A DNA stretch of 64,000 nt from a virus: the UHGV virus genome UHGV-0018629. One strand, written 5' to 3'. Position numbers and translations under genes: made by a program. Shown piece after piece: positions 51,135 through 56,503 of this stretch (the stretch's first letter is position 1; each line of letters starts with the position of its first letter). A model generated the notes under the pieces. It was not told where the DNA came from, ran no database searches, and saw only the letters and a list, made by a program, of their open reading frames with translations.

Positions 51135-52817
51135 TTAAACCATTACAGTAAATCGACCAACTTTCTTCATTTGAAGATGCTGACCATATGATTGCGGGTC
51201 ATGGTCTCTATGCGAAATAACAAAAACATTAGTATTTTTTAAACTATCTAAAATAGTTGAAATAGCTTTTACGCCTTCAACGTCGGTAGCTGAATCAAAA
51301 ACTTCATCAAGAATTAGTGTGTTTATTTTAACACCTGAAACTTTTTCAGCAATATCACGCCAAGTAAATAAAAGAGCAATATCAATTCGCGCTTTTTCGC
51401 CTTGACTAAATGAAGCATAACTAAAATCTTCGCGACCGCGGGATTTAATTGTCTCATTAAATTCTTCATCTAATGTAAACACATAATCCGCTTCCATTAT
51501 TTTAAGATAATGGTTAATCTGCTTATTGAATAATGGAATGTACTTTTTAATAATAGCACCTTTAATACCAGAATCTTTGAGCATATCAGTCAAAATTCCT
51601 CTATGGTATTTTTCCATTACTAAATTAGTTTTTGTCTTAACAATTTTATCAAGTTCTTCTTGAAGCAATGCTATTTCATCAGCATGGTCAATAAACTCGG
51701 ATGATGCTTTTTCTATAGCTGCTTTAACTTTTTTAGCTTTATCTACTGTCGTGATTAAAGATTGCTTTTTATTGCGAATATCATTTGCCAATGATTGTTG
51801 AGTTTTAATATTATCTCGGTATTCATCAACAAGAACTTTTAAATTATCACGATGTGTTGAAAGCTGTTCAAATGAATGCGTACATTCGGAAACTTTATCT
51901 TTAATTTTAGAAACAACTTTATCACCGGAACTTAATTGTGACAAACAGGTTGGACATAATCCACCTTCGTGATACATATTAATGACTTTATTATACGAGT
52001 CAATTTTTGATTTAATTAAAAATGCTTCTTGACCGATTTTATTAAATGCATCAGTCGGGTCTTCATCTAAAACAATATTAACTAATCTTTCATTAGCTTC
52101 TTCTATTTCCGATTTTAGCGTTCTAGCTTCTTTTGCCAAATCATCATACATATTTTGAAGACGAGTAAGGTTGTCACCAGTTAATTTTTTCTGACGTTCA
52201 ACGTTATCATTATATATTTTAATTTGTTGGATAATACTATCTTTTTTAACGTCAAGCACTTGGTTTTGTGAATTTAATTCACGTATTAGTGCTTTATTAA
52301 GCTTATCCATTTCAGCTAATGTTCCTACCTCGAGCAGGTCTTCCACAAGCTTTCTTCGCGCAGGGGTCGACAAACCCATGAAAGGGGTATACCCTGCTGT
52401 ACCAAGGACAACAATCTGCTTGAAACTGGCATATGACATTCCGATAAGCTGTTCAAATTCTGCTTGGAAATCTTTACTGCTGGCAGATTCATTAAGACGT
52501 GTACCGTTAACGGTGATTTCGAAAACGTTTGGTTTTTGTCCTCTTTTGATATAGCACTTTTTCTCATCATATTCCATCCACAATTCAACTAAAAGTTCTT
52601 TCTTATTTGTGCTGTTTATTAATTGACCTTTCTTTACATCACGGAATGGCTTGCCAAAAAGCCCAAACGTGATGGCTTCTAACATAGTAGACTTACCACC
52701 GCCATTTCGTCCAGTAATAAGAGTTTTTTGAACCTTATCTAGTTGAATGTCAATAGGATTTCCACCTACTGACATTATATTTTGATACCTAACTCGGTTT
52801 AGTTTAAAATTCTTCAC
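51135..52817 (-). CDS. 46: recombination nuclease subunit gp46 (Rad50/SbcC-like ATPase)
   Basis: 560-aa ORF with Walker A GRNGGGKST, coiled-coil middle with CPTC zinc hook, C-terminal signature/Walker B (LILDEVFD). Confidence 0.92.
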   Translation of the reverse strand: MKNFKLNRVRYQNIMSVGGNPIDIQLDKVQKTLITGRNGGGKSTMLEAITFGLFGKPFRDVKKGQLINSTNKKELLVELWMEYDEKKCYIKRGQKPNVFEITVNGTRLNESASSKDFQAEFEQLIGMSYASFKQIVVLGTAGYTPFMGLSTPARRKLVEDLLEVGTLAEMDKLNKALIRELNSQNQVLDVKKDSIIQQIKIYNDNVERQKKLTGDNLTRLQNMYDDLAKEARTLKSEIEEANERLVNIVLDEDPTDAFNKIGQEAFLIKSKIDSYNKVINMYHEGGLCPTCLSQLSSGDKVVSKIKDKVSECTHSFEQLSTHRDNLKVLVDEYRDNIKTQQSLANDIRNKKQSLITTVDKAKKVKAAIEKASSEFIDHADEIALLQEELDKIVKTKTNLVMEKYHRGILTDMLKDSGIKGAIIKKYIPLFNKQINHYLKIMEADYVFTLDEEFNETIKSRGREDFSYASFSQGEKARIDIALLFTWRDIAEKVSGVKINTLILDEVFDSATDVEGVKAISTILDSLKNTNVFVISHRDHDPQSYGQHLQMKKVGRFTVMV

Positions 52818-53077
52818 AAAAGATTCCTTTTAATGTATCTTTTAGACCATTCTATCATATCATCATAATCTAAAAAGTATTCATCAAATTCAGCCATGCA
52901 AACAACACCTTGTGCTGCTTTTGATGTGATATAAATTATTCCAACATATCTAGAATCTTCTTCAATATAATCAATATTTGCTATGAATTCATCATTAATG
53001 TCAAATGTCGAAAACTTCACAGTATGCATCCTTAATACAAGATACAGCCATATCTCGTAATGATTTAGGTGTATCAT
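52814..53077 (-). CDS. hypothetical protein (46.1-like position)
   Basis: 87-aa ORF-track call; overlaps upstream ORF by 77 nt, true start may be internal. Confidence 0.45.
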   Translation of the reverse strand: MIHLNHYEIWLYLVLRMHTVKFSTFDINDEFIANIDYIEEDSRYVGIIYITSKAAQGVVCMAEFDEYFLDYDDMIEWSKRYIKRNLL

Positions 53078-53264
53078 TATCTAAAATGTTGAAGTTAAAA
53101 GATACAGCCCAGTCAGTGCAGACCGTAACCTTTTTAATACAATTATCTTCAACCTCTAGCGGTTCAAACCAGTATTCAATAATATCTTTATGACCAATAT
53201 CATCTTTTACTTCGCATTCAAAATGCTGACTCATCATAACATTTTTAAATTCATCAAAAGTCAT
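53001..53264 (-). CDS. hypothetical protein (46.2-like position, 87 aa)
   Basis: ORF MTFDEFKNVMMSQHFECEVKDDIGHKDIIEYWFEPLEVEDNCIKKVTVCTDWAVSFNF... Confidence 0.45.
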   Translation of the reverse strand: MTFDEFKNVMMSQHFECEVKDDIGHKDIIEYWFEPLEVEDNCIKKVTVCTDWAVSFNFNILDNDTPKSLRDMAVSCIKDAYCEVFDI

Positions 53265-54280
53265 TGTGTTGCCTCTACATATAACTGATTTGCATATTGA
53301 ATAAGTGCTTCACGGTCAGAATCAGTGATGTCTGGAATTGCATTAATATACTCTTCCATCAACGTCTGAAGCGATTGAACTTCAACTTCTTCACTATCAT
53401 CTGACTCGACAGAGTTATCAATCTTTGACACAACTCGTAATGAATGCACAACTTTTTCTAGTTCAGATTCGAACTTCGTCAGATTTTTGTCTACCTCAGT
53501 TACTATAACACGTACTGATAGATTTGTAAAATCTTTATAGTCAATTTTTCCCTTAAATGGATATTGAATTCGACGATGCCAGGTAGTGTTGTTTGGAATA
53601 AATTCCATTCGTTCTGTTTCTGTGTCAAACATCCAGAACCCGCGAGGGTCATTCTCGTCACCTGCAGTTAGTGTCCATGGTGTCCCAATATACTTGACGT
53701 TTGCAGCCTCAGAAATAGTATGGAAGTGACCAGACCACACCTCTTTATAAGTCTTAAGGAAATCAGGCTCAAGACCGTGAGATTTCATTCCTTTATAAAA
53801 ATAAAATCCATTCAGTTCCCAGTGACCGACGCAAAAAGAAGCAGATGAAGTTTTGATATGCTCAAGAATTTCACCAGTATTTTCTTCGCACATCCAAGGA
53901 ATCAAATCAATCAAACATCCGTCAAAATCTACTGTAGTAGGCTTATCATATACTTTAACATTAGGATATTTAGCCAAAAGCTCAGTAGAAGCATTTGGAT
54001 GCATTACATTTTTGTAGTGGAGATCGTGATTTCCTACAATAGTATGTAATGTGATTCCAGCATCATCAAGCATTTGAACTATTTCACGAGCGAACTCCAT
54101 AGTTTTATGTGTGATTGCTTTTCGCACATCAAAAATATCACCATATTGAATCCATACAGTAATTCCATTTTTCTTAGAATATTCTATCGCTTGCTTAATT
54201 CCATCAATTTGAATACCGCGAATCCACTCATCATCAGCTTTAACGCCTAAATGCCAATCACCCAAGTTTAGTATTTTCAT
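53261..54280 (-). CDS. 47: recombination nuclease subunit gp47 (Mre11/SbcD-like phosphoesterase)
   Basis: 339-aa ORF MKILNLGDWHLG...GNHD...GHFH motifs; same length as T4 gp47. Confidence 0.92.
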   Translation of the reverse strand: MKILNLGDWHLGVKADDEWIRGIQIDGIKQAIEYSKKNGITVWIQYGDIFDVRKAITHKTMEFAREIVQMLDDAGITLHTIVGNHDLHYKNVMHPNASTELLAKYPNVKVYDKPTTVDFDGCLIDLIPWMCEENTGEILEHIKTSSASFCVGHWELNGFYFYKGMKSHGLEPDFLKTYKEVWSGHFHTISEAANVKYIGTPWTLTAGDENDPRGFWMFDTETERMEFIPNNTTWHRRIQYPFKGKIDYKDFTNLSVRVIVTEVDKNLTKFESELEKVVHSLRVVSKIDNSVESDDSEEVEVQSLQTLMEEYINAIPDITDSDREALIQYANQLYVEATQ

Positions 54281-54881
54281 GGTGTCTTTTCCATCCTAAT
54301 TTAGCTGCTTTTGAAACCAGTTCTTTAATTTTTCCTTTTGTCCATTCAGGACCAGGAGGTTCATGACATAACAATTGCTTAACTCCGTTATTATACCATT
54401 TTTTACCTTTATTATGTGATGAAGCTTTAAATTTATTTGACCTTCCTTTTACATAACCTTCTGGAATATAAGGCAAAAAGGCAGATTTTCCTGTTAATGG
54501 ATCATGTGAATGTATATTTCCTTTACAATTATGAGAACCATATAATGGATGATTTTGTCCTTTATTATCTCTTCCAAATGAACCTTTTGGAGCAGCATAT
54601 GACATATTAAAGAATAATGGATTTTTAACTGCATCATGCAATCGTTGATAATATAACTCGCATTTAATAGCTTCTTCACGCGTATCAAATTCAGCTAAAA
54701 TGCATGAATCAAATAAGTGAGGATTATCTAAAAGCTCTTTATTATAAATTTTCTTATACTTTTTAGATAAAACTGAACCATGATATCCAGCTAAATGCCT
54801 ATCTAAAGACGTAGATCCAATATAAAAAGGAGGAAGTTTATCTCCACTATATATTGTTAAATAAGTTATATATTTTTTCAT
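54258..54881 (-). CDS. GIY-YIG homing endonuclease-like protein with NUMOD-like C-terminal DNA-binding repeats
   Basis: 207-aa ORF MKKYITYLTIYSGDKLPPFYIGSTS...SCILAEF...E...; C-terminal GQNHPLYGSHN and KGKKWYNNG repeats; I-TevI/Seg-like architecture. Confidence 0.6.
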   Translation of the reverse strand: MKKYITYLTIYSGDKLPPFYIGSTSLDRHLAGYHGSVLSKKYKKIYNKELLDNPHLFDSCILAEFDTREEAIKCELYYQRLHDAVKNPLFFNMSYAAPKGSFGRDNKGQNHPLYGSHNCKGNIHSHDPLTGKSAFLPYIPEGYVKGRSNKFKASSHNKGKKWYNNGVKQLLCHEPPGPEWTKGKIKELVSKAAKLGWKRHHENTKLG

Positions 54882-55018
54882 ATATCAAGAACCGTCATTG
54901 AAATGCAAAATAAAATTATTGAAATAAATCCATCTGGAGTGCTAAAGAACCCAATCCAACATGCTCTAGCAAATAGATAAAATGCGAGAAAAAGTATCAC
55001 ATATCCAAGAAATATCAT
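54878..55018 (-). CDS. hypothetical small membrane protein (46 aa) translationally coupled to the GIY-YIG ORF
   Basis: Unlisted ORF MIFLGYVILFLAFYLFARACWIGFFSTPDGFISIILFCISMTVLDI; its TGA overlaps the endonuclease ATG (ATGA). Confidence 0.3.
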   Translation of the reverse strand: MIFLGYVILFLAFYLFARACWIGFFSTPDGFISIILFCISMTVLDI

Positions 55019-55057
55019 TATATCAAACTCCGTATAAAGCTAAAGGGCCGAAGCCCT

Positions 55058-56260
55058 TTATTTTGTAATAATGTCAAACTGTTCTTTAAAGCAGAAGCTT
55101 GAATCTTGATGCTGATACAAAAATTCATAAGCTTTTTCACGTTCACGGTCATAAAGAGCTCGGTCAGATGACAGTTCTTTAATTCGTTCAAATGTTGATT
55201 CCATGTCGTTTTCATCAAACCAAACGATACCGCTATCATGCGAAATTAACGGAGTATTATCAACACGGAATTTTAAATTTTCGCCAGTAGATTTCCAAAA
55301 TACCGGAATTGTTCCGCATGCGCCAAGCTCGAGATGAGTATATTCTAAAGAACGTTGTAGATATTTTTTGTCCAACTTACTCAACTGATAGCCAAATCCG
55401 GATTTACTCATGCGTTCAAGCATTTCGCTATTTACATAACGGTCAAGAATTTGCGTTGGCAAATTAGGAGCAATTTTAATTTGGTCTACTTGATGAAGAC
55501 GATAATATTCGTATGGAATTCCTTTTTCTTTAATAGGAATGAACGCTGGAGAACGTTCCAGACCTTCCATAATAGTACTTAGCCCAGCAGGTTTAAGATG
55601 TTTTTCGTGGAAATCAAACATCTGATAAAAACCTTTCCATGTAGTCGTACGACCAATCCAACGGTTGATATTCATGTTAATTTCAGAAACATCTTTCCAG
55701 TAGGTTGATCGAACCTTCGCAATATCCATAGGAGGCTGAAAGTTGTATACGGTCGGTGCTTCTTCAATATCATCAAACAGAGAAACAGTTTCTGGATACC
55801 ACTCTTTCATCAGAACTTTATTAAAATCACCATTATCAGAATGACTAAAAATAACATCAGCTCGACGAACAGTTTCTTCTAATCCCAAATTTCGACGCAA
55901 AGAAAGAGAAGAATGGTCATGTTGATAAACTACAACACGAACCGAAGGTTTAATGTTATCAATAATTTTTTTATAGTTATTAATCGTATCTTCTTCAACT
56001 GAAGTAGCAGGAACTGAATTGATAATTAGAATATCACAATCATTTACCAGCTTAAGTGTTTTATCATATTCTTTTGCCAATAAAACCGGAATTGAAAATG
56101 ATTTATAATCATGCGCACAGTTACGAGTAAATGATTTATCTTTAGCATAAACCAAAGTTACTTCATGACCATTTTTAATAAACCAATCACGTTGCTCAAG
56201 AGAAAATTTAGTTACACCGCAACCTTCAAGACCCCGAGCCATAAAAATGCATACTTTCAT
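55058..56260 (-). CDS. a-gt: DNA alpha-glucosyltransferase
   Basis: 400-aa ORF MKVCIFMARGLEGCGVTKFSLEQRDWFIKNGHEVTLVYAKDK...; same length as T4 alpha-gt. Confidence 0.9.
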   Translation of the reverse strand: MKVCIFMARGLEGCGVTKFSLEQRDWFIKNGHEVTLVYAKDKSFTRNCAHDYKSFSIPVLLAKEYDKTLKLVNDCDILIINSVPATSVEEDTINNYKKIIDNIKPSVRVVVYQHDHSSLSLRRNLGLEETVRRADVIFSHSDNGDFNKVLMKEWYPETVSLFDDIEEAPTVYNFQPPMDIAKVRSTYWKDVSEINMNINRWIGRTTTWKGFYQMFDFHEKHLKPAGLSTIMEGLERSPAFIPIKEKGIPYEYYRLHQVDQIKIAPNLPTQILDRYVNSEMLERMSKSGFGYQLSKLDKKYLQRSLEYTHLELGACGTIPVFWKSTGENLKFRVDNTPLISHDSGIVWFDENDMESTFERIKELSSDRALYDREREKAYEFLYQHQDSSFCFKEQFDIITK

Positions 56261-56503
56261 TTAATATCCTCATTGTTTTGGTTTATTTTACCAAAAATTT
56301 ATAAAGCAATATAGGAGCCGAAGCTCCTATCCGCATAATACACCATACAGAGGCTCATTAGAGCTTCTAAATTTTATACGTTTATGTGTTATAGTTCCTT
56401 CTGCTTTAGCTTTATCATGAGACTCTTTAAAGCGCCTCATCATTTCTACTTTAGAGGAACGAATTTTATTATAATCTATTTCAGAAGTCTGGGTGTTCAT
56501 CTT

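Follow-up and report, generated by a model that had tools for sequence, protein, structure and literature searches.

A probable Seg-like GIY-YIG homing endonuclease gene at the junction of genes 47.1 and 47 in a Tequatrovirus genome

The stretch of DNA analysed here, a window of 64,000 nucleotides (nt) from the virus genome UHGV-0018629, is a segment of a Tequatrovirus (T4-like) genome, and all genes of the region under study lie on its minus strand. Between the small gene 47.1 and gene 47, it carries an additional open reading frame (ORF) of 207 codons, whose product belongs to the GIY-YIG nucleases. With a probability of roughly 0.8, we regard this ORF as a free-standing homing endonuclease gene of the Seg kind that has been inserted exactly at the 47.1/47 junction. 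The junction comprises the following features.

54878-55018, minus strand: gene 47.1, encoding a hydrophobic protein of 46 amino acids (aa) (PHROG 6693, E-value 6e-31)
54875-54881, minus strand: left copy of the 7-base-pair (bp) repeat ATGAAAA, which contains the endonuclease start codon and overlaps the 47.1 stop (ATGA); from alignment with the insert-free phages RB27 and RB59
54258-54881, minus strand: putative endonuclease ORF (Seg-like, GIY-YIG) of 207 codons, stop included in the coordinates (ORF list, PHROG, Pfam)
54597-54881, minus strand: N-terminal GIY-YIG catalytic domain, residues 1-95, with TIY 9-11, YIG 20-22, R28, Y33, E75 and N92
54261-54596, minus strand: C-terminal, presumed DNA-binding region, residues 96-207 (structure model, alignment with homologues)
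54258-54280, minus strand: overlap of 23 nt between the endonuclease ORF and gene 47 (ORF list and sequence)
54274-54280, minus strand: right copy of the 7-bp repeat ATGAAAA, which contains the gene 47 start (alignment with RB27 and RB59)
54263-54272, minus strand: four synonymous differences in codons 3-6 of gene 47 (alignments with insert-free phages)
54111-54928, minus strand: shortest near-identical tract (0-3 differences) common to the window and phages PaulHMueller, fPS-90 and vB_SsoM_113 (pairwise difference maps)
53261-54280, minus strand: gene 47, the downstream host gene of the insert, encoding an Mre11/SbcD-like recombination nuclease subunit (Pfam Metallophos, E 2.6e-8, and annotations in relatives)

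An earlier note on this DNA had described an ATG-initiated ORF of 207 aa that overlaps gene 47 by 23 nt, which the ORF list reproduces exactly, and an ATGA in which its start overlaps the stop of an upstream 46-codon ORF, which is present in the 4 nt at 54878-54881 ('tcat' on the plus strand). It had placed the ORF between genes 47 and a-gt. The insertion is real, but its precise position is between 47.1 and 47, since the 46-codon ORF is the conserved T4 gene 47.1, which bears this name in RB27, RB59 and RB14 and is annotated as a 'predicted membrane protein' in T4T. Gene 47.1 occurs without the insert in several genera and is a resident conserved gene outside the mobile element. The translational coupling to this small membrane ORF, which had also been proposed, stands as far as the ATGA junction itself is concerned, but it is not special to the insert: because insert-free phages use the same ATGA to join 47.1 to gene 47, the coupling is inherited from the resident junction, and the two ORFs are not a two-gene mobile unit. 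At its other end, the endonuclease ORF obtains its last 7 codons and its TGA stop from codons 1-8 of gene 47, and the stop sits in GGTGAT, which encodes Gly7-Asp8 of the phosphoesterase motif GDWH in gene 47.

The insertion is variable among close relatives. A megablast search with positions 53900-55400 against 50,697 phage records yielded 522 matching records, nearly all Tequatrovirus and including some GenBank/RefSeq duplicates. The whole stretch with the insert is present in 69 of these 522 Tequatrovirus records (about one in eight), and the remainder, including T4, T2, T6, RB27 and RB59, match as two pieces. The presence/absence polymorphism that the earlier note had expected of such an element is thus seen. 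The matching span measures 1501 nt in records with the insert and 900 nt in those without it. Alignment with RB27 and RB59 places an insertion of 601 bp between ...GATATATGAAAA and the remainder of gene 47. The 7-bp direct repeat ATGAAAA flanks the insert, and the boundaries are ambiguous within this repeat; the ATGAAAA of gene 47 recurs 601 bp downstream of the ATGA that joins 47.1 to the endonuclease ORF. The inserted ORF is free-standing, contained in neither an intron nor an intein, and both neighbouring genes are intact.

Judged from its sequence relatives, the inserted ORF is not a chance ORF, because it matches PHROG 10820 at E 8e-94, has 171 homologues in the protein database and shows a ratio of non-synonymous to synonymous polymorphism (pN/pS) of 0.05-0.09; a further match is phrog_314, 'homing endonuclease', at E 1.7e-17. 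All motifs quoted in the earlier note are present in the translation. The only Pfam match is GIY-YIG (PF01541), the family that the note had named for a profile search, with residues 4-84 aligned to profile positions 2-74 at E 3e-4. In an alignment of 40 homologues, the N-terminal ~105 residues are strongly conserved: Y33, G35, S39, L56, F57, A71, E75 and N92 are invariant, and Y7, T9, Y11, G13, Y20, I21, G22, S23, K40 and R68 are near-invariant. The GIY and YIG motifs are present as T9-I10-Y11 and Y20-I21-G22, of which Y11, Y20, I21 and G22 are conserved in at least 90% of these homologues.

Fold comparison was used because sequence searches of the PDB failed, the single-sequence search giving spurious matches only; a search of NCBIfam returned nothing meaningful. 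The AlphaFold2 model has a mean predicted local distance difference test score (pLDDT) of 84, rising to 93-98 over residues 1-90 and exceeding 94 for the N-terminal domain, and displays a beta-beta-alpha-alpha-beta-alpha order, with a first beta-hairpin formed by strands 4-11 and 19-25 and the three-stranded sheet and flanking helices of the GIY-YIG alpha/beta fold. The only confident Foldseek matches in the PDB are 1LN0 and 1MK0, the catalytic domain of I-TevI (probability 0.99), and the N-terminal domain of the model also matches UvrC, Eco29kI and T4 EndoII. Of the viral models in BFVD, 54 reach E<1e-3; where these carry a name, it is mostly that of a GIY-YIG, Seg-like or intron endonuclease. 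E75 and N92 match E75 (the catalytic, metal-binding Glu) and N90 (a conserved Asn) of I-TevI; R28 is present as well, its presumed equivalence to I-TevI R27 resting on the span of the Pfam match, not on residue-level superposition. The N-terminal 95 residues are a GIY-YIG nuclease domain with its catalytic residues in place. The C-terminal half consists, in the model, of a low-confidence linker that includes GQNHPLYG, beta-hairpins at 123-136 and 161-172 and a helix at 186-203. The NUMOD-like C-terminal repeats noticed earlier are borne out in part: GQNHPLYG lines up with the beginning of the region that is NUMOD3 in homologues, but Pfam finds no NUMOD3 in the window protein at E<=1. Among the 40 homologues, 13 match GIY-YIG (E<=0.01) and 17 match NUMOD3. 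GQNHPLYG is presumed to be a NUMOD3-like remnant in a region that may bind DNA. The fold, the exact insertion and the presence/absence polymorphism together support the free-standing homing endonuclease that the earlier note had proposed.

Carriers and non-carriers of the insert also differ at the very start of gene 47, which reads ATG AAA ATA CTA AAC TTG GGT in insert-bearing genomes versus ATG AAA ATT TTA AAT TTA GGT in the T4-type. The two versions are separated by four synonymous changes within 10 nt; the next ~70-150 nt do not vary, and one insert-free locus (L006) differs from the window only at those four positions in the first 170 nt of gene 47. According to searches with synthetic junction queries, insert-type codons are present in 68 of the 69 insert-bearing records, T4-type codons occurring only in phage ERS-1, and in only a handful of the ~435 insert-free records. 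An analogous cluster, with 3-5 changes in codons 3-6 depending on the relative, separates phage QL01 from the insert-free loci L022, L023, L024 and L031. The four synonymous changes may protect the carrier site from its own enzyme and thereby confer target immunity.

The sampled carriers fall into two haplogroups, A (window, PaulHMueller, fPS-90 and vB_SsoM_113) and B (Killian, GEP001 and LYE-01). Members of group A show 0-3 differences in the 624 nt of the gene and 0-1 in the next 157 nt of gene 47. Compared with the other group A members, the window shows 3-7 differences over 137 nt of 47.1, 9-13 over a 340-nt stretch from the middle of gene 47 and 10-73 over a 482-nt segment that comprises the intergenic spacer and the 3' end of a-gt. 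Window and fPS-90 have identical endonuclease genes (0/624 differences), but differ at 73 of the 482 nt (15%) in this spacer/a-gt segment. Between the nearest flanking differences, at about 54093/54111 and 54928/54969, the tract shared by the four group A carriers measures 818-865 nt. Besides the gene, it takes in 148-190 nt of gene 47 and 47-88 nt of 47.1, and the backbones on which it sits diverge by ~2-15%. At the sequence level, such a tract is compatible with a mobile cassette and its co-converted flanks. Groups A and B are separated by 19-25 nt differences in the gene, 14-18 of them synonymous versus 3-6 non-synonymous, which yields the pN/pS of 0.05-0.09 mentioned above; the ratio of non-synonymous to synonymous substitution rates (dN/dS) relative to same-site homologues is 0.10 for SEA1 and 0.16 for QL01.

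Damaged and missing copies complete the population picture. The gene of GEP001 (L039 2001-2621) contains the nonsense mutation G183* (GGA-to-TGA), and in KNP1 (L035 1224-1322), a record marked as unverified, 99 nt stand in place of 223 nt of the gene; in KNP5, the span is shortened in the same way. An empty junction together with insert-type gene 47 codons is found in seven phages, SHFML-26, BCPEco_001, BCPSen_003, Ec_YwIITB1, UGKSEcP1, PBM-1 and EPIMAM01, of which UGKSEcP1, BCPEco_001 and SHFML-26 were read directly, and PBM-1 and EPIMAM01 were assigned from an identical match profile. Further rare variants, 54986 C and those at 54155-54157, are common to SHFML-26 and the window. Insert-type codons at empty sites would fit a precise excision via the 7-bp repeat, or they may represent an ancestral resistant allele. 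As a whole, the population data fit the life cycle of a homing endonuclease: transfer to divergent backbones, purifying selection for as long as the gene is mobile, decay now and then, and precise loss via the 7-bp repeat.

Homologues with 59-80% identity are located directly before gene 47 in other Tevenvirinae lineages. Gp0054 of Salmonella phage SEA1 (Gelderlandvirus) has 79-80% aa identity and the identical 23-nt overlap, and the homologues of Escherichia phages QL01 and IME08, which are devoid of a-gt, have 61% identity. The QL01-type homologue occurs in 8 of 106 matching records, JS10 having 47.1 there instead, and further same-site carriers are vB_EcoM_005 and the Klebsiella phages KP185, SmallBear and HMGUkp2. 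Like the window protein, the SEA1 and QL01 homologues are ~205 aa long, with tail and stop encoded by the start of gene 47, and the 207-aa architecture is kept from genus to genus, with 55-80% identity. The (H/N)EN tails of homologues P0002-P0025 (HENTKLG, HENSPHG, HENSSHR, NENS, NENSNDR and others in close homologues) are the -1 frame of gene 47's ATGAAAAT... start, and the TGA stop usually sits in GGTGA(T/C), the Gly7-Asp8 codons of GDWH. All same-site homologues have just one flank in common, the 5' end of gene 47: the upstream neighbour is 47.1 in the window, whereas it is an a-gt.2-like or another small gene in other same-site phages. The homologue of vB_EcoM_005 (L028 1749-2504) differs in its length of 251 aa, its unrelated C-terminal ~70 residues and its overlap with gene 47, a 4-nt ATGA instead of 23 nt. 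Paralogues, for example in phages HX01, Bp7, IME281 and TG1, which lie at other genomic sites according to record coordinates and annotated neighbours, are 45-71% identical to the window protein in their N-terminal ~110 residues and, unlike it, end in Pfam NUMOD3 tails. A catalytic domain with swapped C-termini reflects the kind of domain shuffling that GIY-YIG homing endonucleases typically undergo.

Intronless homing with co-conversion of flanking sequence is described for Seg endonucleases (PMC2988022), and the window gene could spread in the same way. The endonuclease would be translated by coupling to 47.1; its ATG is not preceded by a Shine-Dalgarno sequence. In a mixed infection, the C-terminal hairpin/helix region would bind, and the enzyme would cut, at or near the 47.1/47 junction of an insert-free relative. 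The conserved gene 47 start would be the most likely target, because no other flank is shared by all of the same-site homologues, and we give even odds to the more specific proposal that the target consists of the first ~25 nt of gene 47. The break would then be resected and repaired from the insert-bearing genome, whereby the gene and ~50-190 nt of each flank would be copied. The carrier site would be protected by the insert that splits it, by the four synonymous changes, or by both. After insertion, gene 47 would presumably be translated by reinitiation from the overlapping endonuclease ORF or from a weak GGA 9 nt upstream.

Several observations weigh against a homing endonuclease, or against parts of the scheme just described. 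Our literature search found no paper that names or characterises the gene and no cleavage or homing experiment for its protein. The Pfam match, with 21.4 bits, stays just under the GIY-YIG gathering cutoff of 22.6 bits, a PDB search with a 40-sequence profile gave no match at E<=1, and an hhalign comparison of the family with residues 1-97 of I-TevI (sequence verified against 1MK0/1LN0) was not significant. None of NUMOD1-4 is matched by Pfam in the window protein, even at E<=1. The position of R28 is occupied by R or K in the close subfamily and by N or Q in some distant homologues, K40 being near-invariant. In T4, the start codon of some endonuclease genes is sequestered by an RNA hairpin; when 101-nt segments around the start codons of the endonuclease gene and gene 47 and around the insert-free junction were folded, the z-scores ranged from +0.4 to +1.8 and indicated no start-sequestering structure. 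The shared tract of the group A carriers could come from ordinary recombination in a mosaic region, without any nuclease. The first ~18 nt of gene 47 may likewise travel with the upstream cassette, so that the codon differences mark a mosaic boundary, which is supported because loci L009 and L010, from phages of another lineage, contain no endonuclease gene, yet differ at codons 3-4 along with the upstream genes; a search for another endonuclease class upstream of gene 47 in these two insert-free loci revealed only small unrelated ORFs. The immunity and mosaic-boundary explanations are not exclusive, and both may hold together. ERS-1, finally, combines the insert with T4-type codons.

The ERS-1 record (L033, PP337211.1) is flagged 'UNVERIFIED_ORG' and has frameshifts in a-gt, the endonuclease gene and gene 47. 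Its assembly is probably error-rich and unfit as evidence for a pseudogene. Given these frameshifts, ERS-1 is also weak, in either direction, as a counter-example to the association of codons and insert. The sub-threshold Pfam score reflects limited sensitivity and is not in conflict with the evidence from the fold.

Three other explanations of the gene have to be weighed against a homing GIY-YIG endonuclease. There is next to no chance that it encodes an HNH endonuclease, as stated by the labels of RefSeq and PHROG 10820. This identity is backed by annotation strings only, in many RefSeq records and in the PHROG description, and it is refuted by sequence and fold: the window protein matches no HNH Pfam family at E<=1, the top-scoring fold matches include no HNH nuclease and are led by GIY-YIG nucleases, the N-terminal fold and motifs are those of GIY-YIG, and the homologues are named GIY-YIG or NUMOD3 proteins. 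The 'HNH endonuclease' label has been propagated, for instance in RefSeq NC_054924 and NC_055723; elsewhere, databases label the gene 'hypothetical', 'putative homing endonuclease' (BASEL phages) or 'homing endonuclease'. It is also very improbable that the ORF is a relic without activity, left over from a homing endonuclease gene in decay and still open by chance. Damaged copies do exist, as in GEP001 (nonsense mutation) and KNP1 (partial replacement), the Pfam score is sub-threshold, and the C-terminal region is devoid of the NUMOD3 repeats of many homologues. However, the window copy is of full length with intact catalytic residues, synonymous changes far outnumber non-synonymous ones between the haplogroups (14-18 versus 3-6), and the architecture of 207 aa persists at 55-80% identity.

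A role as accessory gene deserves somewhat more weight, although we consider it unlikely as well. The protein would then be a GIY-YIG nuclease that no longer homes, or never did, and that benefits the phage by excluding competitors, attacking satellites or defence loci, or stimulating recombination, with vertical transmission, ordinary recombination and sporadic loss. The strong purifying selection (pN/pS 0.05-0.09) indicates that the phage keeps the protein, as expected for a beneficial gene, and mosaicism just before gene 47 is seen in several genera that have no nuclease gene there. Seg-type proteins can moreover have other roles, with SegD and SegB as examples. SegD reportedly did not home its own gene. 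For SegB, a contribution to immune evasion by amplification of anti-defence loci has been reported (PMC13096335). Against an accessory gene speak the near-identical cassette on backbones differing by 2-15%, the exactly same insertion site in several genera, and the decayed and apparently excised copies. This pattern is that of a selfish element, and a benefit for the host phage would not exclude homing.

Beyond homing as such, the data allow a more far-reaching interpretation, which we put forward tentatively and consider possible, but doubtful. In several lineages of Tevenvirinae, one GIY-YIG lineage may have stayed faithful to one and the same target, namely the initial ~25 nt of the Mre11-like gene 47, and become structurally interlocked with this gene: its ORF would be completed by gene 47 codons, with the stop in the Gly-Asp of GDWH, it would have captured the translational coupling of gene 47, and the changes in codons 3-6 would be its self-immunity determinant. 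In T4 break repair, the recombination nuclease of gene 47 is expected to process a break of this kind. The element might thus govern how the same nuclease that is expected to act on its own break is translated.

Further genes of the region are the following.

55058-56260, minus strand: a-gt (Pfam AGT)
52814-53077 and 53001-53264, minus strand: a pair of small ORFs, where relatives annotate 46.1 and 46.2 (ORF list)
51135-52817, minus strand: gene 46 (ORF list)

Just 5' of 47.1, at ~55017-55042 (minus strand), the sequence TTAGCTTTA-N12-TATAAT is similar to a T4 middle promoter with its MotA box; phage Lutter has a 'promoter' annotated at the equivalent stretch. The -10 element of this candidate overlaps the 47.1 ATG; transcripts from it would be without the 47.1 start, and the ATGA coupling could therefore not operate on them. 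A generic sigma-70 promoter scan found no excess of sites (7 versus 7.0 expected from shuffled sequence). Between a-gt and 47.1, at 55041-55060, lies a GC-rich tetraloop hairpin, AAAGGGCTTCGGCCCTTT (gene sense), whose counterpart in fPS-90 carries a terminator annotation. The a-gt alleles are strongly mosaic directly beside the cassette, as seen in fPS-90 versus window positions 55019-56260. The HNH homing endonuclease gene mobB (a-gt.1), found just upstream of a-gt in the T4-type RB59 (L002 3319-3896), is absent from the window (56261-56330), a further presence/absence polymorphism less than 1.5 kilobases (kb) from the endonuclease gene. The endonuclease gene has no paralogue elsewhere in the 64-kb window. 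In the T4-labelled record KJ477685.1, only 38% of the 1.5-kb query is matched, by gene 47 and 47.1, and a 'hypothetical protein' is annotated at the expected position of a-gt, which may reflect a rearrangement or deletion at a-gt.

The window gene shares several properties with SegA-SegG of T4. These are likewise free-standing ORFs between conserved T-even genes that combine a GIY-YIG N-terminus with a C-terminal extension, they encode ~200-220 aa, their presence varies among close relatives, and flanking sequence travels with them (PMC2988022). Unlike the T4 seg genes, the window gene is located at the 47.1/47 junction, a locus that is empty in T4, its protein has no Pfam NUMOD3, and its ORF starts on the stop of the upstream gene and takes its end from the first 23 nt of the downstream gene. 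In contrast to the td intron endonuclease I-TevI, it is not intron-encoded; the two proteins are 17-21% identical over structural alignments, and Pfam detects neither a zinc finger nor a helix-turn-helix of the I-TevI type in the window protein.

Variable Seg-like genes among T4 relatives are well documented (PMC2993671, Table 5), and the endonuclease described here is an uncharacterised Seg-like addition to the T-even repertoire of mobile genes, the kind itself being known. The finding is unsurprising and of moderate specialist interest, and it changes no concept of the field, while it corrects a widespread mis-annotation as 'HNH endonuclease'. Sequenced phages provide empty, filled, decayed and apparently excised sites, so that this locus is a convenient natural system for the homing endonuclease life cycle. 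The 47.1/47 junction is furthermore a likely hotspot of marker exclusion in crosses of T4-like phages, which is relevant for the engineering of therapeutic phage cocktails and for reading the mosaicism around genes 46 and 47.

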